Assembly (NCBI GenBank): GCA_963796455.1
Contig: CAWCLO010000010.1
Location: 731,369-795,368 of the forward strand
Reading direction: 5' to 3'
DNA: 64,000 nt
Origin: Candidatus Sulfomarinibacteraceae bacterium
GTDB lineage: Bacteria > Acidobacteriota > Thermoanaerobaculia > Thermoanaerobaculales > Sulfomarinibacteraceae
Below the pieces are notes generated by a model that was not told where the DNA came from, did no database searches, and saw nothing but the letters and a program-made list of their open reading frames with translations. Positions within the stretch are counted from its first letter, which is position 1. The number at the start of each line of letters is the position of its first letter. This document shows positions 2,138 through 12,358 of the stretch, piece after piece. Both the position numbers and the translations under genes were made by a program.

Positions 2138-2791
2138 TTACCAGCGGAAACCTACGTTGATCGGCATGAATGTCGAGGTGGACTCGGTTCCCACCCAGTG
2201 GTACTTGGCCTCGAGGTAGATCACCGAGTCGCTCTCGAGCCTGAAGGTGATCGCCGCGCCGATGGTGTAGCCGAAGTCGATCGACGACACGGAATCGTCG
2301 ACCACGGCGCCAGGGGTGCACCCCCACCAACACCACCAGGGATAATGGGGGTCGTAATTCGGTCCGCAGGTATAACCCGGCTCGGTCAGCTGGCCCTGGC
2401 TGTAGTAGGCGCCGAACCCTGCCTGGACGTTGAAGCCGACACGACCACCGGTCTTGAGTGCCCAGATTCCGCCCGCGGTCAGCGACCAGATCGACGCATC
2501 GCCCCCCGAAGACTCGTAAAAGTCGAGGGCGTCCCGGGTGATGCCGAAATCGTTGTATCCCAGTTCCATGACGATGCCGAGGGGCCAGTCATTTGGTTTG
2601 TAGGTCGCGCCGCCGCTGATGTTCCAGCCGCCCGAGAGAATATTGCCGGTGTCGCCCTGGGGCGACGAATAACCTGCTGCGATGTGGCCGAACCATTGTT
2701 GCCAGCTCTTGTCGAACTGGGCGTCAGCGGTTGCCGGGACCAGCACCAGCCCGAAAATCACGGCCAGAATCGGCAGACGTTTCAGATTCAT
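2138..2791 (-). CDS. Outer membrane beta-barrel protein
   Basis: Signal peptide (ADA-Q), amphipathic strands, C-terminal aromatic (GFRW), Cys/Trp-rich loop. Confidence 0.75.
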   Translation of the reverse strand: MNLKRLPILAVIFGLVLVPATADAQFDKSWQQWFGHIAAGYSSPQGDTGNILSGGWNISGGATYKPNDWPLGIVMELGYNDFGITRDALDFYESSGGDASIWSLTAGGIWALKTGGRVGFNVQAGFGAYYSQGQLTEPGYTCGPNYDPHYPWWCWWGCTPGAVVDDSVSSIDFGYTIGAAITFRLESDSVIYLEAKYHWVGTESTSTFMPINVGFRW

Positions 2792-2998: not shown

Positions 2999-3340
2999 AT
3001 GGAAATCACCAAGCGCACTGTAGGCGACGTCACAATTTTGGATCTCAACGGAAAGCTCACCATCGGCAAGGGGGACGTGGTCCTCCGCGATGCACTGGTA
3101 GCGGAACTCGAGGGGGGCAGCAAGGCCATTCTGATCAACCTCGATACGGTGAACACCATCGACTCATCAGGTCTTGGTGAGTTGATCCGCTGCAGGGTGA
3201 CCTCGAAGTCTCACGAGGCGGAGGTCAAACTGCTCAACGTCAACATCAAAGCCCGTAAACTTCTGACCATGGCCCAGCTGGTCGGGGTCTTCGAGATGTT
3301 TGATGACGAAGAGCTGGCGGTGGCCTCTTTTTCTGCATAG
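2999..3340 (+). CDS. STAS-domain anti-sigma factor antagonist
   Basis: VTILDLNGKL...ILINLDTVNTIDSSGLG with the phosphorylatable Ser; 113 aa. Confidence 0.92.
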   Translation: MEITKRTVGDVTILDLNGKLTIGKGDVVLRDALVAELEGGSKAILINLDTVNTIDSSGLGELIRCRVTSKSHEAEVKLLNVNIKARKLLTMAQLVGVFEMFDDEELAVASFSA

Positions 3341-3383: not shown

Positions 3384-3618
3384 CTTGTGACCCGATGAAA
3401 ACTCCGCCTTTGCGTCTTTGCGTTTCTGTTTCAAACTGAAAATCGAACACTCCTGAAGCACTCGGTGCTTCAGTGGACGATGCAGGGATATCCGCGTCAA
3501 TCTGCGTAATCTGCGGGAAAATGCAGGAGAAACACACGCTACGAGCGCAGCCCTCGACACCGCCGGCACCATTTGGTTCTTTCGTGGTTGCGACGAGGTG
3601 GGCTGCCAACCTGGAATG

Positions 3619-3645
3619 AAAAGGCGCGCCCGGAAGGACGCGCCT
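3619..3645 (-). terminator. Intrinsic terminator after the 1031-aa gene
   Basis: Minus strand AGGCGCGTCC-TTCC-GGGCGCGCCT-TTT, about 25 nt after the stop at 3670. Confidence 0.7.
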
Positions 3646-3669
3646 GGATATTCTGGACTGAGACGTAGG

Positions 3670-6600
3670 CTAGCGGAGGTCGAGTTCGGCCGGTGCGCCT
3701 TCGTAGACCTCGATCGTTCCCTGGCGGGGACCGGCGGCGGTGCCGATCGAGATGACATACGAGTCTGCCTGCAAGGGCCCGATCCGAAGACCACCCGCGG
3801 TGGGCTGCGGCGGGCTGGCCATGAAGAGAAGGCTCGAGAGATCGACCCCATCCGTTGTCATGACGCGCACCGTCGGCATGCTTTTGGCGTTTCCATACAG
3901 CACGTCGATATAACCGCCGACGCCGAGGTCGAGGCTCGCCTGGAGTTGATCGCCGTCGTCGACGAGAAGTTCGGGGCCGCACCCGGTGGCGCCGCCGTAG
4001 GCAAATCCGCACGGCCGGTAGGCCCCGGCAGTGATGCCCGAGAAGGTGGCATGCCCGCCGGTGTCGGTGAAGCCGGTGGAGGTCTCCGGGCCCACGAGGT
4101 AGACCGGCGCGCCGCCGGCCGAACCGGCGATCGCGTTAACCGCCAACATGACGTTGCCGCCGTCAGGGGGCAGAAGCTCGAGCACGATCGGACCTTCGTT
4201 GCTACCATCGCGCAGATCGAACTCCGAGGGAATCGAGGGTGCGAACTCGGTGTGGTCAGCGGTCAGAACGAGCTTGCCCGGTTCGAGACCGCGAACCGTG
4301 AACCGTCCTTCGCCGTCGGTGAATGCCGTGGCTTCCTGAATGCCATCGCCTGCAAGGGCGACGACCGAAGCTCCGGCCACTGCGAGGCCGTCGTCGTCAA
4401 CCACAACACCTGAGACCGCCGCATCGGCGTATTGGATGGTGCACTGGAATGTGTCGACATGAGGCACATCGAGGGGCTTTGTGACCGGTGCAGAACCACC
4501 GCCGGCTGGGGTGTAGGACACATAGTATCGACCGGGAGTGAGCCCGGATCCCGCAAAGCGGCCGTCCGAGTTGACTGCAAAGGTCATCGGCTGCTGGTCG
4601 ATGCCGAAGAACTGGCGATCGGCGGTGACCCGCTGCATCATGACCACCACACCCGGGGCCTGTGAGTTTTCGGTCGTCAGGATGACGGAGCCGCCGGGCG
4701 CTCTCGAATCGCCGAGCCAGACCTCGCCCTCGATGCGCATTCCGCCGAGCATCATCTCGACGTCGACGGTCTCTCTCTCGCGACCCTCGACTCTTTCGCG
4801 TGCTTTCTCGTTGCCTCGGGTGGCCGTCAGAGACCACTTACCGACCGGCAGACGTTCGGCACGGAACCAGCCCTCGTTGTTGGTGCGAACGGTGGTCTCG
4901 GCGAAATAGGCATAGGATGCGTCTTCGGTGATTTCCACCGCGACACCGGTGATCCCACGACCGCCGCGATCGACGACCTGACCGACGATGGTCATCCCGG
5001 CGTCCATCTCCACATCGCCGATGTCTTTGCCGATGTCATCGGGCTCGACACCGTCGAGTCGCCAGGTGGCGAAGTTCGAGGCGCGAACGATGGCCCGGCA
5101 GGAGCCTTTGTCGAGCCCCTCGAGGAGGAAGAGCCCGTCGGCGTCGGTCAGGACATCGGGTACGTTTTCCACCAGGTGCGGGGCGCGAAAAACGGTTGGT
5201 GATCCGGGCTCACAACTGACCTGTGCTCCGGGGATCGGCTGCAGGGTCTCGGCGTCGAGCACGCGACCCGCAATAGCCAGCCCGCGGTCCGGAACGATCG
5301 GCGCCAGCACGATCTCCTCGCCGGTTGAAATCTCGACCCGCTCGCTGGTCATGGTGGCGGTCCCTGGAAGCCTCACCGACAATGCGTAGGTGCCGGATTC
5401 GAGGCCGCCGGCGCGGGCGACGCCACGCTCGGCATCCCATTCGCCCTTGCCCGATTTTCCTTCACGACCATTGGGGTGATATGCCTGCCAACGCACCATG
5501 ACCTCGTCGGAGCCAAAGCGTCGCGCGCTCAGCACCTGCTGTTCGATCACCGCGCCGCCGGGAACGGTGATAACGACCACGTTGCGGTCGGCAGTGAAGC
5601 TGCCCTCCCACATCCCGAAGCCACCGCCGAAGATCTGGAGCGCAACGCTCTCGCGGTTGACCAGGCCCTCGAGTTTGAGTTGACCCTGGGCGTCGGTCTC
5701 GTAAATGCGGTCGTTGGAAATGACGATGGCCTTCTGGATCCGTTCGCCGACTTCGTTCTGAACCATCATCATCACGTCTCTTCCGCGCGGCAGGTTCAGC
5801 TCGATGGGCGGTGCGGGCTCTTCCGGTTGCAGATCGACCTTGAACTCGGAACACGCAAATCCATCGGCGCAGGCGCGGACACGAATCTCTCCCGGGAGCA
5901 GACCGCTGAGACTGAAAGTGCCCTCCGCCGAGGTGGTGTCGGTCTGGGTATAACGAAAGCTGTCGAGTTCGACGATCTTGCCAAGGGCCTCGACCCTTGC
6001 TCCGGCCAGGGCTTGACCATCGGCATCCTTGACCACGCCCGCAACGGCGAGTCCGTCGGCCAAGGAGAGAGACAGTTCCTTCGGCAGACCCTGGAAGGTA
6101 CCGACGATCGGCTCCTTTCCATCTGCAGCAATCAGACCGACATAGGTGGCCTCACGATCCAGATCGTGGACCGCGATCACCCCGTCATCTTCGATTTCAT
6201 ACTTCTCGGCCACGTTCATGAACAAGGTCGTCACGTTGACCCGGTCTTCACGGGCGAGCCAGACCCTTCCGGGGGCGGCGGGTTCGAGGGTGACGGTGAG
6301 TGTTCCCTGGGGATCGAGCAATACCGTATGGCGCCGGCCGTCGGCCACGACCCGCAGATCGGCATTGGCATATCCGGGTGCAAAGACCATGAGTCTTTCC
6401 CCACCGAGGCACGCGAGATCGAGACGTCCGTTCGCCGAGACCCATTCCTCTTCGAGCAACTCTTCGGGTGCGCCAGGAACCGCCCAGCGCAGACGACCGG
6501 CGGTGATCGCCTCGCCCGAAATCGAATCCAGCACCAGAAGCTGGGTGAGCTCGAGTTGCGGCAAGCTGAGGCTTTCACCATCAAAGGCCAGTGCTGTTAC

Positions 6601-6765
6601 CGGAGCTCCCGCTCCGACCCGTGCCCACTGCGTGCCATTGTCGGCGCGTGAAGTGACGGCGTTGGCGACAATCGATCCGTCCGGCGCGGTCACAGTCGGC
6701 GCCGCGGCTGCGATCGATACAGCCATCGCGAGTGCTGCGAAGATGACAGGCGTTATGCGTCTCAT
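3670..6765 (-). CDS. Secreted carboxypeptidase regulatory-like domain repeat protein (1031 aa)
   Basis: Signal peptide; repeated G.V.D..G.P..GA.V / T..DG.F.L.GL..G.Y beta-sandwich modules; no catalytic peptidase motif seen. Confidence 0.85.
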   Translation of the reverse strand: MRRITPVIFAALAMAVSIAAAAPTVTAPDGSIVANAVTSRADNGTQWARVGAGAPVTALAFDGESLSLPQLELTQLLVLDSISGEAITAGRLRWAVPGAPEELLEEEWVSANGRLDLACLGGERLMVFAPGYANADLRVVADGRRHTVLLDPQGTLTVTLEPAAPGRVWLAREDRVNVTTLFMNVAEKYEIEDDGVIAVHDLDREATYVGLIAADGKEPIVGTFQGLPKELSLSLADGLAVAGVVKDADGQALAGARVEALGKIVELDSFRYTQTDTTSAEGTFSLSGLLPGEIRVRACADGFACSEFKVDLQPEEPAPPIELNLPRGRDVMMMVQNEVGERIQKAIVISNDRIYETDAQGQLKLEGLVNRESVALQIFGGGFGMWEGSFTADRNVVVITVPGGAVIEQQVLSARRFGSDEVMVRWQAYHPNGREGKSGKGEWDAERGVARAGGLESGTYALSVRLPGTATMTSERVEISTGEEIVLAPIVPDRGLAIAGRVLDAETLQPIPGAQVSCEPGSPTVFRAPHLVENVPDVLTDADGLFLLEGLDKGSCRAIVRASNFATWRLDGVEPDDIGKDIGDVEMDAGMTIVGQVVDRGGRGITGVAVEITEDASYAYFAETTVRTNNEGWFRAERLPVGKWSLTATRGNEKARERVEGRERETVDVEMMLGGMRIEGEVWLGDSRAPGGSVILTTENSQAPGVVVMMQRVTADRQFFGIDQQPMTFAVNSDGRFAGSGLTPGRYYVSYTPAGGGSAPVTKPLDVPHVDTFQCTIQYADAAVSGVVVDDDGLAVAGASVVALAGDGIQEATAFTDGEGRFTVRGLEPGKLVLTADHTEFAPSIPSEFDLRDGSNEGPIVLELLPPDGGNVMLAVNAIAGSAGGAPVYLVGPETSTGFTDTGGHATFSGITAGAYRPCGFAYGGATGCGPELLVDDGDQLQASLDLGVGGYIDVLYGNAKSMPTVRVMTTDGVDLSSLLFMASPPQPTAGGLRIGPLQADSYVISIGTAAGPRQGTIEVYEGAPAELDLR

Positions 6766-7845
6766 GACGACTCCTCGATCTGCTCCACCTTTGGCACTTC
6801 CACCTGCCAGACGGTCGTCTTGGCCGATGGTTCCCAGGTTTCCTGGCCAATGAGAACCAGACGACCGTTGTCGGCGTCGGCGGCGACCAGACGGCCGGCC
6901 TGGACCCCGGGAATCGGCAATCCGATCGCCACCGGTTCTCCGCTCAACCGGTACAGGTCGAGCTCATGGCGCTGTTGCAGGGTGCCGTCGGGTATCCCGA
7001 CGACGAATGCCAGAAGGTCCTCGCCAAGCACAACCGGTCGTTTGACCAGCGGTTGCGATAACTGCCACCGTGAATAACCTTCACGTCCGGAAGCATCGTG
7101 CACCTCGGGCGCTGCGGCCCAGTTCGGTGCGCGGAAGCGAGGATTGATGCCACGCCACGCCTTGGTCAGGCGGTCGCGACTGTCAAAAACATAGACTGAA
7201 TAGCTGCGCGGATCGACGAAAGACCCACCCACCGTCGGGGAGGGCGGCCAATCCGCCGCTGATGATGCCCGAAAACTGGATACGTTTCACGACCTCCGGG
7301 ATCGGCATGCTCCCGGGGTACTCCTGAAGCGGTACGACCGATCCGTCGTCATATTGAACGTAGAGATAGGAGGTCCCGCTCGATGACGCCTCGGACCGGG
7401 CGACTCCGAAAACCACGATGCGGTCATCGAAGACCAGCGGCTGGCCGCTCGCCGTACTGGTGAAGCCCGGGTATTCGTTGAGAAAGCGCCAGCTGCTGTC
7501 GAAAAAGACCCAGAAGTAGCGATCGCCGAAGACGACACACCGTTCCGATCCGCAACCGAGATGCTGCGGACCGGTGACCTCGCCACGCTGATTTCCGATC
7601 GGCAGGATCGAACGGCGATCTTTGCCGGTCCGGAGATCCACCTCACGCAGACCGCTGGTCCAGTCGGGCAGCAGGAGCGTGTCGCCGCGCACCACTGCGT
7701 CGACGATCATAATGGCGGGTTTTTCGAGGTTCAGAGCTTGTGCAGACAGGATGCTCATGGGGCTGTCGGCGGGCGCCGCCAACACCCCGGCGCAGATCAA
7801 CACAGCACCAGCAACGTACACAAGCACTCTATGAGTGCGTCTCAT
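6762..7845 (-). CDS. Secreted beta-propeller-like protein (about 360 aa); one apparent frameshift near 7218
   Basis: ORFs 7183..7845 and 6762..7232 join by removing one T (GGWVF/VDPRSY); signal peptide; GNQRGEVTGPQHL resembles the GxGPGEFxxP blade motif; ATGA overlap with the next gene. Confidence 0.65.
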
Positions 7846-7863
7846 CGATCCAACCTGGCGAGA

Positions 7864-7884
7864 CCGTCAGAACAGGTCTGACGG
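7864..7884. other. Intergenic RNA hairpin between the peptide gene and the propeller gene
   Basis: CCGTCAGA-acagg-TCTGACGG, perfect 8-bp stem with no U-tract. Confidence 0.7.
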
Positions 7885-7891
7885 ACCGCGA

Positions 7892-8092
7892 TCAGGGGCC
7901 GTCTGGGTAGACGAAGACGACGTAGCAGTCGTACGGCAGCGGGGCGCAGCCGTTGGGGTGGTTCGGCGTGTAGACCATCCATCCGATCATATGGACTTCC
8001 GCCTCGGCCACACTGGGAGCGATCAGGGCCGGCAACAAAGCGCCGAACACCATCACCGCAAGTACTAGGACACCAATTTTCCTTTTTGACAT
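7892..8092 (-). CDS. Small secreted peptide (66 aa; 35-aa mature part with two Cys)
   Basis: MSKRKIGVLVLAVMVFGALLPALIAPSVAEA/EVHMIGWMVYTPNHPNGCAPLPYDCYVVFVYPDGP; GGAGG RBS upstream; AEA signal-peptidase I site. Confidence 0.85.
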   Translation of the reverse strand: MSKRKIGVLVLAVMVFGALLPALIAPSVAEAEVHMIGWMVYTPNHPNGCAPLPYDCYVVFVYPDGP

Positions 8093-8123
8093 GACTTTGC
8101 CCTCCATCATGTTAGTTAGGGTT

Positions 8124-8152
8124 AACGTATTGGCCATCGACACCATTGTCAA
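8124..8152 (-). promoter_or_regulatory. Sigma70-type promoter of the peptide operon
   Basis: Minus strand TTGACA (8152-8147), 17-nt spacer, TACGTT (8129-8124). Confidence 0.75.
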
Positions 8153-8410
8153 GTGCTTGTCTCGATTTCACCTCCCCAAATGATCCGATCACACTCCGCC
8201 GCCATGTCGCGTGCGGCGTCGAATGACTGATTGATTTTGGCTGGGTCACAACTAGGGATCCGCCTTTGGAGGCGATTTTCTCATACCGGATCCCGCGATT
8301 ATGTGACCTAGCGCACACGGCCCCATGGATTGTTGTCAGCTTACCCTGAGGCTTCTGCGCCTCGGTCTCAAAATGATGATCGTGTTATCTTCGCGTCCGA
8401 GGAGGCCGTC

Positions 8411-8908
8411 ATGTCCCGTCGCATCCCGTTCGTGATGATTCTTGTTGTCTTGCTGGCCGCATCAACTGCTGCCTCCGTCGATTTGAATCTGGCTCTCGGG
8501 GCCAATTTCAATGGTGATTTCGATCTCGGCGATATCAGTTTCGGTTCCGACACCGGCTACACCCTCGGTCTGGAGGTAGCAGTCGATATCCCGGTCATCG
8601 AACTGGGTGCGGGCCTCGAGTACGGTTTCTCGCGGGAAGCAAGCGAAGTGGACCTCAAAGCCAGCTACTATCTGCTCTACGCGATCGGCAGGTTCTATTT
8701 CGGTCCGGTCTATATCGCCGCCCGTTTTGGTTATAACGATATTTCGGTGTCCAGCGCCCTCGAAGGAGATTTTGGCGGCGGAGGCAGCTGGGCGGTCGGA
8801 GGCGGGATCGAACTCTTTCAGAAACTCAAGTTCGAACTCCTCTTCAACCGGCTCGGTGGGGACCTCAGCTACGAAAGCTGGAATCTGCGCGCCCTCTATA
8901 CCTTTTGA
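8411..8908 (+). CDS. Small outer membrane beta-barrel protein
   Basis: RBS GGAGG, signal peptide, about 8 amphipathic strands, ends YTF. Confidence 0.8.
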   Translation: MSRRIPFVMILVVLLAASTAASVDLNLALGANFNGDFDLGDISFGSDTGYTLGLEVAVDIPVIELGAGLEYGFSREASEVDLKASYYLLYAIGRFYFGPVYIAARFGYNDISVSSALEGDFGGGGSWAVGGGIELFQKLKFELLFNRLGGDLSYESWNLRALYTF

Positions 8909-8915
8909 GTTGCGG

Positions 8916-9764
8916 TTAGAACGGAAATCCGAAGCTGAGTCGAACGCCGCGAACGTTTTTACCCCAGCGATAACCGAGGCCGATTCTCGGTAGCTTCATA
9001 ACCCACAGTTTGATCTTCGGATCGGTGCCAAAGGTCAGACCGATTTCGTGATTCGCCTCGAGGGTGAGCGGTTCGGCATCGGGCCGGTCGATGCGGGCGT
9101 CAAAATAATACCGGTAGATGTAGTAAAGGCTGAGGTTCGCCTCATTACCGGCAATTGTGAACCCGAGGGGGTGGTTGGCGTCACCACCAATTTCGAACTC
9201 GCCAAAGCGATCCTCGAGACCGAGGTCTGATTTGATGACCGACAGGAAGCCGAGCCTGGTGCCGACACTCAGATCGAATTTGTGAACCGGGTATTCGGCC
9301 AGGGTTCTGATGCCGACACCCCAGAGCCCGAACCCGAGTTGGTCGTCAAAATCCCGGATATAACCGCCCTCGGCATAAGGTTTGAGGAGCCACTCGTCGC
9401 CCACCGGGAGTAGGAATTCACCACCCAAGGTTCCGCCAAAAGAAGCAAACCTGAGCTGGTCGACGATGATGTCGTTATCGACGAAGAGATCGTAGACGCC
9501 TGCGTAGAGGGTCACCTTGAGCCGCAGCCCCCAGGAGCGGTCGTCCAACTTGAGGATCGGGACATAGAACTGAATCCGCACGTCATTGACATCGGCGTTC
9601 GCGTTACTGATGCCCCCGTTGCCGGGACCGAAGGCCAATGGGTGAAACGTGAGCGGCGATGATGAATCTCCACTCTGTGCGGCGCAGAGACCGCTCCATG
9701 CCGAAATCACTACGGCGAAAATGATGGCGGTGCGGAGCAGAGAAGCGTTTGCAGAAGAGGCCAC
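8916..9764 (-). CDS. Hypothetical outer membrane protein (start uncertain)
   Basis: Signal-like segment RTAIIFAVVISAWSGLCAA, beta-strand pattern, ends FGFPF; the longer ORF to 9920 overlaps the OmpA gene. Confidence 0.6.
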   Translation of the reverse strand: MASSANASLLRTAIIFAVVISAWSGLCAAQSGDSSSPLTFHPLAFGPGNGGISNANADVNDVRIQFYVPILKLDDRSWGLRLKVTLYAGVYDLFVDNDIIVDQLRFASFGGTLGGEFLLPVGDEWLLKPYAEGGYIRDFDDQLGFGLWGVGIRTLAEYPVHKFDLSVGTRLGFLSVIKSDLGLEDRFGEFEIGGDANHPLGFTIAGNEANLSLYYIYRYYFDARIDRPDAEPLTLEANHEIGLTFGTDPKIKLWVMKLPRIGLGYRWGKNVRGVRLSFGFPF

Positions 9765-9831
9765 CTGGGGAGTATATAGCGGCGGCGTTACGCCTCCCCA
9801 GGGTCGACCACGGTCGCGGGCTGGCGGGTTC

Positions 9832-11259
9832 CTACCGGGTGCTCGGTTTGAAATCGACGCGACGGTTCTTGGCCCGCCCTTCGGCGGTGGTATTCGGAGC
9901 GATGGGCTCGTGCGGCCCAAAGCCCTTGGTCGTCAGCCGATTCGCCGCGACGCCGTTGGTGACCAGGTATTTTTTGACCGCATCGGCCCGCTTCTGCGAA
10001 AGGTCCATATTCCACGCCATCGAACCGGTGCTGTCGGTATTGCCCTGGATCTCGACCGTGAACCGTTGGTTCTTGGCGAGGAAGTTGGCGATCTTGAGTA
10101 ATACCTCGGCGGCCTCGGGTCTGATGGTCGCGCGGTTGGTCTCGAAGAGGACCCGGCCCTGGACCGACCACTCGTCACCCGCCACGACGATGCCGGCGAC
10201 GGGACAGCCGTTCTTCGTGACCGGAACACCCGACGGGGTCCCCGGACACTTGTCGAGGTGATCCGGCACACCGTCACCATCGGAGTCGAGCGGGCAGCCT
10301 GAAGCGTCGACTGCAACTCCCCTTGGGGTTTCAGGGCATTTGTCGAGGTGGTCCGGTACGCCGTCGCCATCGGAATCGATCGGGCAACCTGAAGCATCGA
10401 CTCTCACGCCGCTCGGGGTGTCCGGACACTTGTCGAGGTAATCGGGCACCCCGTCGTTGTCGGAATCGATCGGGCAACCGACGGCGTCGACTTCAACGCC
10501 AAGTGGCGTGTCGGGACACTTGTCGAGGTGGTTGGCCACGCCGTCGGAGTCGTCGTCGGGCCACAGGAAGGCGTCAATCACGAGTTCGGACATGGCCTCA
10601 GCCGTGGTCAGAGTATTTGCCGATCTGACATAACCGCCGCCGCCGGCAGCAACCAAATCTTCGAGGAGGGCTCGACCGCGTTTGTCACCACCGATTTGAA
10701 TCGCATAGATGTCGAAGTCTTCGCCAAATGTGTTTTTCAACGCTGTGGCGGCGGCCACTTCCTTTTTGCCCATGTGGAGACCGTCACTGACGACGATCAC
10801 GACCGACGGAGACTGGTGGTCCGCCATATCGACGGCGGAGGCGTCGAGAGCAAGGTTGAGCGGCGAGCTGCCGTTGGCACACTGAAAACGTGCGATCCCG
10901 TCTTCGAATGTGGCACCGATGTGTTCTCCGAGGTCGATGATCGACACCGTTCGGCCCGTGCTCCCGCACAGACCGCGCCCGAACGTGCGCAACGCCCCCT
11001 GAAAGTCGAGCTCGGGAATCGTCTGGTTGAGGCTGATCAGGGCATCTTCTGCGACGCTCAATTTTCGGTGCCCACGGCTTCGGTCGGCCATCGAGAGCGA
11101 GCCGTCGGTGATCACGACGAACTGATCGACCTTTCGAACATATTTGGCGGCATCAATTGAGCCAGGCTCGAAAACCAAGGTGTCGCGCGACGAGGCACAG
11201 GCGGTTGAGAAGGTTAAAGCAACGACCACCATGAGCGTGTTCAGGGCGAATCTCTTCAT
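9832..11259 (-). CDS. OmpA-family lipoprotein with vWA domain and thrombospondin type 3 repeats
   Basis: Lipobox-like STAC; MIDAS DGSLS and VSDG; four 30-aa DxDxDGVxDxxDKCPxTP repeats; OmpA C-domain NMDLSQKRA...RAKNRRVD. Confidence 0.92.
   Translation of the reverse strand: MKRFALNTLMVVVALTFSTACASSRDTLVFEPGSIDAAKYVRKVDQFVVITDGSLSMADRSRGHRKLSVAEDALISLNQTIPELDFQGALRTFGRGLCGSTGRTVSIIDLGEHIGATFEDGIARFQCANGSSPLNLALDASAVDMADHQSPSVVIVVSDGLHMGKKEVAAATALKNTFGEDFDIYAIQIGGDKRGRALLEDLVAAGGGGYVRSANTLTTAEAMSELVIDAFLWPDDDSDGVANHLDKCPDTPLGVEVDAVGCPIDSDNDGVPDYLDKCPDTPSGVRVDASGCPIDSDGDGVPDHLDKCPETPRGVAVDASGCPLDSDGDGVPDHLDKCPGTPSGVPVTKNGCPVAGIVVAGDEWSVQGRVLFETNRATIRPEAAEVLLKIANFLAKNQRFTVEIQGNTDSTGSMAWNMDLSQKRADAVKKYLVTNGVAANRLTTKGFGPHEPIAPNTTAEGRAKNRRVDFKPSTR
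10201..10560 (-). repeat. Four 90-bp coding repeats (TSP3)
   Basis: Recurring ggacacttgtcgagg-like / cggaatcgatcgggcaacc-like units at a 90-bp period. Confidence 0.85.
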
Positions 11260-11467
11260 CACTCCTCCTCGGTTGCGGTACCTGTTTGGTTTTCATTTTC
11301 GACCAGTGCGTCTCGACCCTTCACGATGCTTTGATGCGACCGGAGTCTGTCACAAACGATTTCCTCGTGCAACACGGTTCAAGCTCCTCGGGAGGGATGA
11401 AGAGAATGACTGGGGAGCCGGGGCGGATGGCCTCTTTGTGAGGCCCCGGGTCTGTATGCTGTCGATC

Positions 11468-12145
11468 ATGAAGCAAGAATCCTACCGTGGTGTGCGGCTC
11501 GATTTTGACCGCCTCGGGGAAGACCAGATGCTCCAACGCGGCAGGTCCTTTCTCGATCGTCTGTCCGGGCGGCGATCGGTCAGACAATTTTCATCCGATC
11601 CTGTGCCTCGCGAGTTGATCGAGATCGCGGTCTCAGCTGCCAACACCGCCCCGTCAGGCGCCAACCGGCAGCCGTGGCATTTCGCAGCCGTATCCGATCC
11701 GCTCGTCAAGGCGGAGATCCGTCGGGCTGCGGAGGCCGAAGAAAAGGAGTTCTACGAGGGGGGGCGGGCGGGTGCCGAGTGGCTCAAAGCACTGCAACCG
11801 CTCGGAACCGAGTGGCGCAAACCTTTTCTCGAGACCGCACCGTGGTTGGTTGCCGTTTTCAAGCAGATATACCAACCGGGCGAGGACGGCTCGAAGAACA
11901 CCAACTACTACGTCAATGAGAGCGTCGGGATCGCCTGCGGGATGTTCATCACGGCGCTCAACGAGATGGGCCTCGCCACGCTCACTCATACGCCGCAACC
12001 AATGCGGTTTCTGACCAAGATCCTCGAGCGGCCGGCAGCTGAGAGACCCTTCATTCTGTTTCCGGTGGGATACCCCGCGGCCGACTGCGAGGTGCCGGCG
12101 ATTCGTAAGAAGGGGCTCGATGAGGTGAGTAGCTGGTTCGAGTGA
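11468..12145 (+). CDS. Nitroreductase family protein, iodotyrosine deiodinase-like
   Basis: RRSVRQFS, TAPSGANRQPW, EEKEFY, KPFLETAPWL, YYVNESVGIACG, LTHTP. Confidence 0.9.
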   Translation: MKQESYRGVRLDFDRLGEDQMLQRGRSFLDRLSGRRSVRQFSSDPVPRELIEIAVSAANTAPSGANRQPWHFAAVSDPLVKAEIRRAAEAEEKEFYEGGRAGAEWLKALQPLGTEWRKPFLETAPWLVAVFKQIYQPGEDGSKNTNYYVNESVGIACGMFITALNEMGLATLTHTPQPMRFLTKILERPAAERPFILFPVGYPAADCEVPAIRKKGLDEVSSWFE

Positions 12146-12150
12146 GAAAG

Positions 12151-12258
12151 GGAGCAGAGGAGCAGAGGAGCAGAGGAGCAGAGGAGCAGAGGAGCAGAGG
12201 AGCAGAGGAGCAGAGGAGCAGAGGAGCAGAGGAGCAGAGGAGCAGAGGAGCAGAGGAG
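12151..12258 (+). repeat. Perfect octamer tandem repeat (GGAGCAGA) x13.5
   Basis: 13 perfect copies at 12151-12254 plus GGAG, starting 5 nt after the stop codon. Confidence 0.98.
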
Positions 12259-12358
12259 ACCTGCTCCTTATCACGTACAGAGCTTCCGGTACGGTTCTCC
12301 CTTTCCCCTCTTTCTCCCTTTCTCCCTTTCGGGAACGGGAATCGGAACTGTCGTTCAA

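Follow-up and report, generated by a model that had tools for sequence, protein, structure and literature searches.

Loci that pair a small secreted peptide with a β-propeller are known from Bacteroidota, where an NVEALA (PF14055) peptide stands beside a DUF5128 (PF17170) propeller. Other described proteins recall single components of such a pair or of the larger system reported here: NHL-type propellers, which bind ligands on their top face; PAL, a propeller enzyme with conserved histidine zinc ligands and catalytic tyrosine and arginine; and curli and Fap, small-subunit fibre systems with Gln/Asn-repeat subunits. Here we analysed a 64,000-nucleotide stretch of DNA (the window) from a Candidatus Sulfomarinibacteraceae bacterium of the class Thermoanaerobaculia (Acidobacteriota), and we describe in it a three-gene operon encoding a 66-residue peptide, a propeller and a 1031-residue protein of tandem β-sandwiches, hereafter the arm, each with a predicted signal peptide. 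Judged from sequence, this three-gene module is real, conserved and class-wide, and it is apparently undescribed. It resembles the uncharacterised Cys-peptide/six-bladed-propeller loci while falling outside their Pfam families, and what it adds to them is a dedicated, sometimes fused partner of 12 predicted domains.

In DUF5128/NVEALA loci of Bacteroidota, too, a small Cys peptide with a signal sequence accompanies a secreted six-bladed propeller, and the initial annotation of the window had drawn a loose analogy to them. The analogy survives as distant kinship: aligned with 24 DUF5128-locus proteins of other Acidobacteriota (hhalign 95%, E 2.4e-8, 170 columns), the propeller is, by profile comparison, a distant relative of DUF5128. 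It does not extend to family membership, since the DUF5128 Pfam model matched 0 of 129 propellers at E ≤ 0.01 and nothing in the host genome, while NVEALA matched 0 of 35 peptides at E ≤ 0.1 and nothing in the host genome at E ≤ 1; the NVEALA leader motif is also absent from the 35-peptide alignment. The DUF5128 loci differ in a further respect, as the arm profile matched 0 of 30 short DUF5128 loci, the dedicated, coupled and sometimes fused 12-domain arm being a feature of the present system. A convincing signal-plus-Cys small open reading frame (ORF) was present in the fetched DNA of 3 of 30 DUF5128 loci. Small signal-bearing Cys ORFs near DUF5128 propellers of other Acidobacteriota (L219:39-302, L220:1173-1496 and L247, minus strand 1191-1361) are unrelated by profile to the peptides described here.

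In the open full-text literature, which leaves most subscription papers outside, we found no paper on NVEALA, DUF5128 or Thermoanaerobaculia carboxypeptidase-regulatory proteins. The genus of the closest named relatives, Sulfomarinibacter, has been implicated in seafloor sulfur cycling (PMC8528874); the main text of that article contains no 'carboxypeptidase', 'propeller' or 'adhesion', and its supplements may list these genes.

Organization of the operon

The window forms the end of contig C10 of a 5.0-Mb genome assembly that is 90.5% complete, in which the peptide-propeller-arm module is single-copy. The promoter, ribosome-binding site, 66-residue ORF, hairpin, ATGA overlap, 1031-residue ORF and terminator reported in the initial annotation were all found in place on the minus strand. 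For signal peptides we relied on visual inspection and a hydrophobicity rule, not on a trained predictor. The features are as follows.

8124..8152, minus strand: sigma-70-type promoter TTGACA-17-TACGTT (TTGACA at 8152-8147, TACGTT at 8129-8124), recognized from the sequence and its conservation among loci
8100..8105, minus strand: ribosome-binding site GGAGGG, recognized from the sequence; GGAGGG lies 3-10 nucleotides (nt) 5' of the start in the printed relative loci
7892..8092, minus strand: gene of the 66-residue peptide, with a Sec-type signal and a 35-residue acidic mature part carrying C49-x6-C56
7864..7884, minus strand: intergenic inverted repeat (CCGTCAGA / TCTGACGG), a possible RNA hairpin 3' of the peptide gene
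6762..7845, minus strand: gene of the putative secreted six-bladed NHL-like β-propeller, about 360 residues, split at 7218 by one extra base
6762..6765, minus strand: ATGA stop/start overlap from the propeller gene to the large gene, seen in the sequence; the same 4-nt overlap occurs in distant loci
3670..6765, minus strand: gene of the 1031-residue secreted β-sandwich repeat protein, identified from PF13620 stretches and a structure model
3618..3645, minus strand: intrinsic terminator with a 10-pair stem (3645-3622) and a T-tail, recognized from the sequence

The middle product, first described as a protein of about 360 residues, is a single frame in relatives and is read in this assembly as two frames of 220 and 156 residues. 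In 33 of 34 relative loci its gene is unbroken, and in the 34th a contig end truncates it. The base at 7218 is missing from one contig of run X2 that is otherwise identical across 153 nt, and likewise from two contigs of run X4. Breaks of this kind occur often in the assemblies concerned, given that the large gene is split in 7 of 36 family-level loci. An assembly error is the probable cause of the extra base and is favoured over a strain-specific mutation, which is possible.

The promoter pattern TTGAC[AG]-17-TAnnnT was present in all 24 loci examined, 28-37 nt before the peptide start and with a variable spacer sequence. A generic consensus scanner did not list it, and its -10 box matches TATAAT at only three of six positions. 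Hairpin-plus-T tails similar to the terminator of the window follow the large gene in several same-genus loci. The 4-nt stop/start overlap recurred in 14 of 30 distant loci (starts chosen automatically) and likely reflects translational coupling of the propeller and the large protein. Two contig observations bearing on RNA, namely a relative's contig over the peptide core at a depth of 134 against 2-8 for other pieces (run X17) and one exact 195-nt contig over the peptide gene (run X20), were not used as evidence; these runs share the stretch at 0.15 and 0.10 only, and such contigs cannot rank genes.

Distribution of the module

The large protein occurs in 22 of the 24 other genomes of the genus and in 10 of 12 of a second one; over the family as a whole it was found in 36 of 77 genomes, and the gene order peptide, propeller, large gene is kept in near relatives. 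Database records 47-73% identical to the large protein are mostly named Ca. Sulfomarinibacter, Sulfomarinibacteraceae, Thermoanaerobaculia or Acidobacteriota, with other names on 2 of 25, and metagenomes from sediment, marine and salt-marsh sites make up the runs that share at least a fifth of the words in the stretch; the host is therefore probably a member of the Ca. Sulfomarinibacter group. A propeller profile retrieved 299 cluster representatives at E ≤ 0.001, and with a deeper profile, made from 129 sequences, hits were obtained in 115 of 401 class genomes at E ≤ 1e-6 and in 107 at E ≤ 1e-10. Outside the class, five genomes of a phylum sample matched the propeller profile, all weakly; among four loci fetched from there, L209 has the full peptide-propeller-repeat layout and L210 a propeller with a repeat protein.

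To describe the neighbourhoods, 116 propeller genes drawn from a family search and profile searches (169 matches) were examined, of which three were dropped for missing flanks. In the resulting 113 loci, many of which are kin and thus not independent, a signal-bearing Cys peptide adjoins the propeller in 85 (75 upstream, 10 downstream only), the large gene is present in 97, and both partners occur in 78. Homologous loci therefore share the small secreted ORF and the three-gene synteny that the initial annotation led us to expect. Seven loci have the peptide and the propeller without an adjacent large gene, and nine have neither partner. The peptide detector fired at 1 of 494 control sites of the host genome; a stricter peptide motif was found in 72 of the 113 loci versus 6 of 494 controls, and a looser detector had a control rate of 11 of 398. 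Among 80 distant loci the peptide was found in 55, the large gene in 64 and both in 48.

The initial annotation had also suggested looking for co-variation between peptide and propeller. Peptide architecture does cluster by propeller clade, the labels of the 5 groups changing 6 times where shuffling gave 44.6 changes on average; the clustering shows co-inheritance and not co-evolution. The propeller tree comes from a quick IQ-TREE search with 15 loci left out, mostly near-duplicates, and its labels were set by eye per locus, with 19 of 99 rows unlabelled and L184_1 labelled though no peptide was found beside it.

All-against-all clustering of neighbouring genes revealed no enzyme, transporter or sensor gene recurring beside the loci across lineages. 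Nor did a linked exporter, protease or modifying enzyme recur among 1495 neighbouring frames, as judged by blastp clusters over flanks of 2.5-5 kb and with no family-library scan of the neighbours.

The genus g52 has several module copies per genome and peptides with long C-terminal tails. Two of its loci (L205 and L206) carry two large genes in tandem, and two others (L184 and L185) a second propeller facing the first, followed by a gene whose product resembles a BlaI/MecI-type repressor.

The peptide

Cleavage of the 66-residue peptide is predicted after AEA (residue 31), leaving a mature part of 35 residues that ends in proline. Over a 26-codon core, the ratio of nonsynonymous to synonymous polymorphism (pN/pS) across 18 loci was 0.12 in the first genus (66 pairs) and 0.30 in the second (15 pairs). 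Between the two genera the mature peptide is 69% identical, compared with 29% for the signal peptide, 63% for the propeller and 49% for the large protein. On the strength of this low pN/pS and of a mature part well conserved between genera, the peptide gene is judged to be real and strongly constrained.

Across the class the peptides range from about 57 to 170 residues and have in common a signal peptide together with two paired cysteines, which are usually spaced C-x6-C; two-, four- and six-to-eight-Cys types occur, as well as long-tailed ones. In peptides and propellers the number of cysteines is even, and gains or losses affect two at a time. A class-wide alignment of 35 peptides gave the consensus C-x-x-Y...C-x-G-x-G-x-G-C-x-x-C, in which C49 and C56 of the window are invariant columns. 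No Pfam or NCBIfam family passed with the peptide, and sequence searches of the PDB with the peptides returned nothing significant. Its 83 database relatives are, where named, all hypothetical proteins except for two automatic mislabels.

Some loci depart from the usual layout. A propeller-peptide unit without the large gene is present as a near-exact tandem duplicate in L167:2548-6170, and in L108 two different peptide genes lie in tandem 5' of one propeller. In L163 (minus strand, stop about 1236 nt before the propeller stop), a short ORF upstream of the propeller has a leader ending in LLEAVGG followed by a Cys-rich core and resembles a lanthipeptide-type precursor.

The propeller

A structure was predicted for the intact same-genus relative L050, which is 75% and 83% identical to the two pieces of the propeller in the window. 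The model (predicted local distance difference test, pLDDT, 92; predicted template modelling score, pTM, 0.89) displays six four-stranded blades, a velcro closure and two helical insertions, as counted from the model strands, and the middle protein is accordingly predicted to be a secreted six-bladed NHL-like propeller, in line with its first description as propeller-like. The closest structures were NHL propellers (Brat, Mei-P26, TRIM2/3/71; PAL), with Z 19-23 across some 250 residues, the top one being Brat NHL (Z 22.8, root-mean-square deviation 3.0 over 250 residues), with Bacteroides BVU_1028 (3s9j, Z 18.0) and BF0058 (4raa, Z 17.3) also matching. In contrast to these NHL propellers, to which it is 10-13% identical, the present one is secreted rather than cytosolic and bears the two helical insertions. 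Its Atlas neighbours are DUF5128/NHL clusters (0.91-0.93), sequence searches of the PDB gave generic propeller matches only, and no Pfam or NCBIfam family covers it, a Pfam scan of 129 propellers yielding one stray match.

Among these 129 propellers only three glycines are at least 90% conserved, and no His, Tyr or Arg reaches that level. Several arginines are 53-89% conserved among distant propellers, whose one His (51%) and one Tyr (62%) are Leu and Phe in the clade of the window. With only glycines above the threshold, a universal catalytic set is not apparent, which argues against a shared propeller active site.

A weak propeller match on contig C4 of the host genome, considered as a second copy, proved to be an unrelated repeat propeller. 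It precedes a 4602-codon gene (G000 C4:1164366-1181541, minus strand) whose secreted product has weak prealbumin-repeat similarity (E 5e-29), and a leucine-rich-repeat gene lies before the same gene. An intermolecular propeller-arm disulfide was likewise rejected, since the half-conserved Cys of the propeller has its partner within its own chain, some 50 residues further on.

The arm and its natural fusions

Six PF13620 stretches were detected in the 1031-residue protein (185.8 bits against a Pfam cut-off of 32.3), and its model (pLDDT 82, pTM 0.68) is nearly all β, which agrees with its earlier description as tandem carboxypeptidase-regulatory-like β-sandwiches. With domain bounds read from the model strands, the arm is predicted to comprise about 12 β-sandwich domains, namely a small family-specific N-terminal domain and 11 prealbumin-like repeats. 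The N-terminal region carries a motif, W-x-W-S-x-x-x-x-P-x-R, found almost only alongside the propeller, and a conserved hydrophobic insertion at about 700-720 is poorly ordered in the model.

The arm shares tandem prealbumin-like sandwiches, above the Pfam cut-off, with PF13620 repeat proteins, including NOMO-like proteins and SdrD-B/CnaB-type stalks, and its Atlas neighbours are PF13620/PF22904 repeat proteins; it differs from them in its family-specific N-terminal region. Unlike M14 carboxypeptidases, it lacks a catalytic peptidase domain, and searches against Pfam and NCBIfam at E ≤ 1 found no peptidase family, catalytic or anchor domain. In contrast to MSCRAMM and CnaB pilins, the arm has no wall anchor: its C-terminus is a plain β-strand with neither a sortase anchor nor an export signal, and alignments of 21 and 43 arm sequences contain no invariant Lys or Asn for isopeptide bonds. 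No solved structure matched the whole model globally in Foldseek (TM-score at most 0.10).

Propeller and arm form one chain with a single signal peptide in L105 and P0079, which are 72-78% identical to each other. A separate fusion in P0070 has another junction and other nearest relatives. These natural fusions are the strongest sign that the two proteins work together as one unit, in which the propeller sits at the front of the arm, and they support the propeller-scaffold partnership first suggested from the window. A word-index screen of 7986 scored candidates turned up no fused propeller of greater length, the known fusions having come from other searches. In some lineages the arm is absent, and in others it is doubled.

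Proposed function and alternatives

We tentatively propose, while rating it somewhat short of an even chance, that the products of the three-gene operon form an envelope assembly of non-enzymatic nature, where the propeller-arm pair would bind and place an abundant peptide subunit. The proposal starts from the observed co-occurrence, gene order, promoter, purifying selection on the peptide and propeller-arm fusions, adds the two predicted folds, and from there we infer the remainder. All three products would cross the inner membrane via Sec, after which the C-x6-C pair of the peptide may close a disulfide loop between two hydrophobic β-strands. Because the peptide gene comes first, with its own ribosome-binding site and an inverted repeat downstream, the peptide could be made in excess as a structural subunit, the propeller and arm being translated at about 1:1, in a coupled fashion and in smaller amounts. 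The propeller, which would be tethered to the front of the 12-domain arm, may act as a dedicated binding partner or chaperone of the peptide, and the arm as an accessory spacer that gives the two their position, whether periplasmic or on the surface. The seven loci that keep peptide and propeller without an adjacent large gene point to these two as the core pair, and a structural assembly is favoured because no catalytic residues, exporter or sensor came into view.

Several points weigh against this proposal. Peptide binding by the propeller is presumed, and the peptide excess is deduced from gene layout. The intergenic hairpin keeps a 5-pair core in 10-12 of 12 sequences, among which no compensatory pair change was found. 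A peptide was not detected in 28 of the 113 loci; at least L052, L062, L173 and L197 have frameshifted peptide genes, and others show none. The arm N-terminal 215-residue profile scored strongly (E < 1e-18) in 94 of 401 genomes, and 91 of these carry the propeller, a co-occurrence that speaks for the proposal and is partly circular because both profiles were built from these same loci. Of the three arm-only genomes, one has a propeller remnant 5' of the large gene, one has none and one has the large gene at a contig end; genome G080 counts only among the 291 genomes with neither gene. A DsbB or VKOR gene did not turn up in the host genome (90.5% complete), which leaves disulfide formation uncertain. 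The operon includes no dedicated outer-membrane pore, and surface export is no more than possible, the two secretin genes and one CsgG-family gene of the host being unlinked to the operon and untyped.

A bolder extension, which we regard as doubtful, would make the module a new class of filament or surface-coat biogenesis, in which the disulfide-looped mini-protein polymerises by β-strand stacking, the propeller serves as chaperone or nucleator and the 12-domain arm spans the periplasm. Curli and Fap fibres have a small Sec-exported β-rich subunit encoded first together with dedicated exported helpers, as is predicted for the present operon. They differ from the present operon in that it has no outer-membrane pore, the CsgG-family gene of the host (G000 C3) lying on another contig, and in that its subunits are Cys-looped instead of Gln/Asn repeats.

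The fusions offer a head-plus-stalk layout and thereby lend themselves to an unlikely, equally doubtful alternative, a fixed 1:1:1 adhesin or lectin with the arm as stalk, the propeller as binding head and the peptide as a permanent plug completing the head. Tandem prealbumin-like repeats do resemble adhesin stalks, pilin and adhesin chains appeared in Foldseek (though with the low TM-score over the query given above), and the peptide is strongly conserved within a lineage. Against an adhesin stand the arm C-terminus, devoid of anchor or export signal, the persistence of peptide and propeller without the arm in seven loci and, as weak evidence, the absence of any peptide-propeller fusion, the search for longer forms being empty.

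The initial annotation had also entertained the propeller as an immunity partner, that is, a secreted antibacterial toxin peptide guarded by a periplasmic immunity protein. Such a pair would fit the order of peptide gene then partner, the great diversity of peptides across the class and a patchy, multi-copy distribution with up to five propeller matches per genome and propeller clades that do not follow host families. We consider it improbable, since the core is nearly invariant across two genera, at the pN/pS values given above, and the mature peptide is conserved between them like its partners. Moreover, none of 74 short mature peptides (cut by rule) has a positive net charge, the median being -3, whereas unmodified bacteriocins are typically cationic. 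There is mostly one locus per genome, present in 22 of 24 same-genus genomes and in a common gene neighbourhood; no exporter recurs among the clustered neighbours, PADLOC gave no match, and the coupled 1000-residue protein is left unexplained.

About as improbable is a diffusible peptide signal received by the propeller-arm pair as a periplasmic receptor relaying to an unlinked sensor. Lineage-specific peptide classes that track propeller clades and the top-face ligand binding of NHL-type propellers are compatible with it, but no kinase, sigma factor or membrane component recurs across lineages, propeller and arm both lack a membrane anchor, and the promoter is conserved and sigma-70-like.

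Very unlikely is a propeller that processes the peptide as its substrate, for instance as a PAL-like amidating lyase. PAL does turn up in the structural comparison, at rank 17 among the 50 listed (Z 18.3), some peptides end in glycine and several arginines are partly conserved in distant propellers; yet conserved metal ligands like those of PAL are missing from the present propeller, no His, Tyr or Arg attains 90%, and the clade of the window lacks most of the partly conserved ones. A C-terminal Gly occurs in only 8 of 87 peptides, that of the window ending in Pro, and no partner monooxygenase recurs among neighbours. Least probable of all is a periplasmic metal chaperone whose cysteines bind metal that is handed to the propeller-arm pair, an idea that draws on the C-x-G-x-G-x-G-C-x-x-C of many members, the acidity of the peptides and the missing DsbB and VKOR genes, and that conflicts with the two cysteines only kept in the clade of the window and with the even-numbered, pairwise gain and loss of cysteines, as of disulfides.

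Genomic surroundings

A STAS-domain gene (2999-3340, plus strand; anti-sigma antagonist-like) converges on the operon end; it was seen in 23 loci of the two nearest genera and is absent from distant loci. Beyond it, a 217-residue signal-peptide protein (2138-2791, minus strand) is small outer-membrane β-barrel-like, ends in Trp, contains an inserted Cys-/Trp-rich loop and has no Pfam match at E ≤ 1. On the other side, an OMP_b-brl-like gene (8330-8908, plus strand; 27.8 bits, slightly below the cut-off) is divergent from the operon and has relatives in 15 same-genus loci; it is adjoined by a second barrel-like gene (8916-9920, minus strand) and an OmpA-like gene (9832-11262, minus strand). The STAS, OmpA-like, small outer-membrane and mechanosensitive-channel-like neighbours were rejected as parts of the module: common to the two nearest genera, they do not follow it in distant lineages and represent chromosomal context. 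Just 3' of the terminator, at about 3400-3525, many loosely matching high-depth contigs in several runs look like a dispersed repeat, and a short tandem repeat at about 12142-12300 translates to SRGAEEQR repeated several times.

Implications

About a quarter of the class genomes searched carry the module, some in multiple copies, and annotation misses it because peptide and propeller both lack a family model. The class itself, Thermoanaerobaculia, is a widespread and for the most part uncultured group of Acidobacteriota. If the filament or coat extension were true, the much larger, uncharacterised set of Cys-peptide/DUF5128-type propeller loci in other phyla would represent this machine without its arm. 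With dozens of cognate peptide-propeller pairs, two fusions and arm-less versions, the module offers a tractable entry to the role of small Cys peptides beside bacterial propellers.

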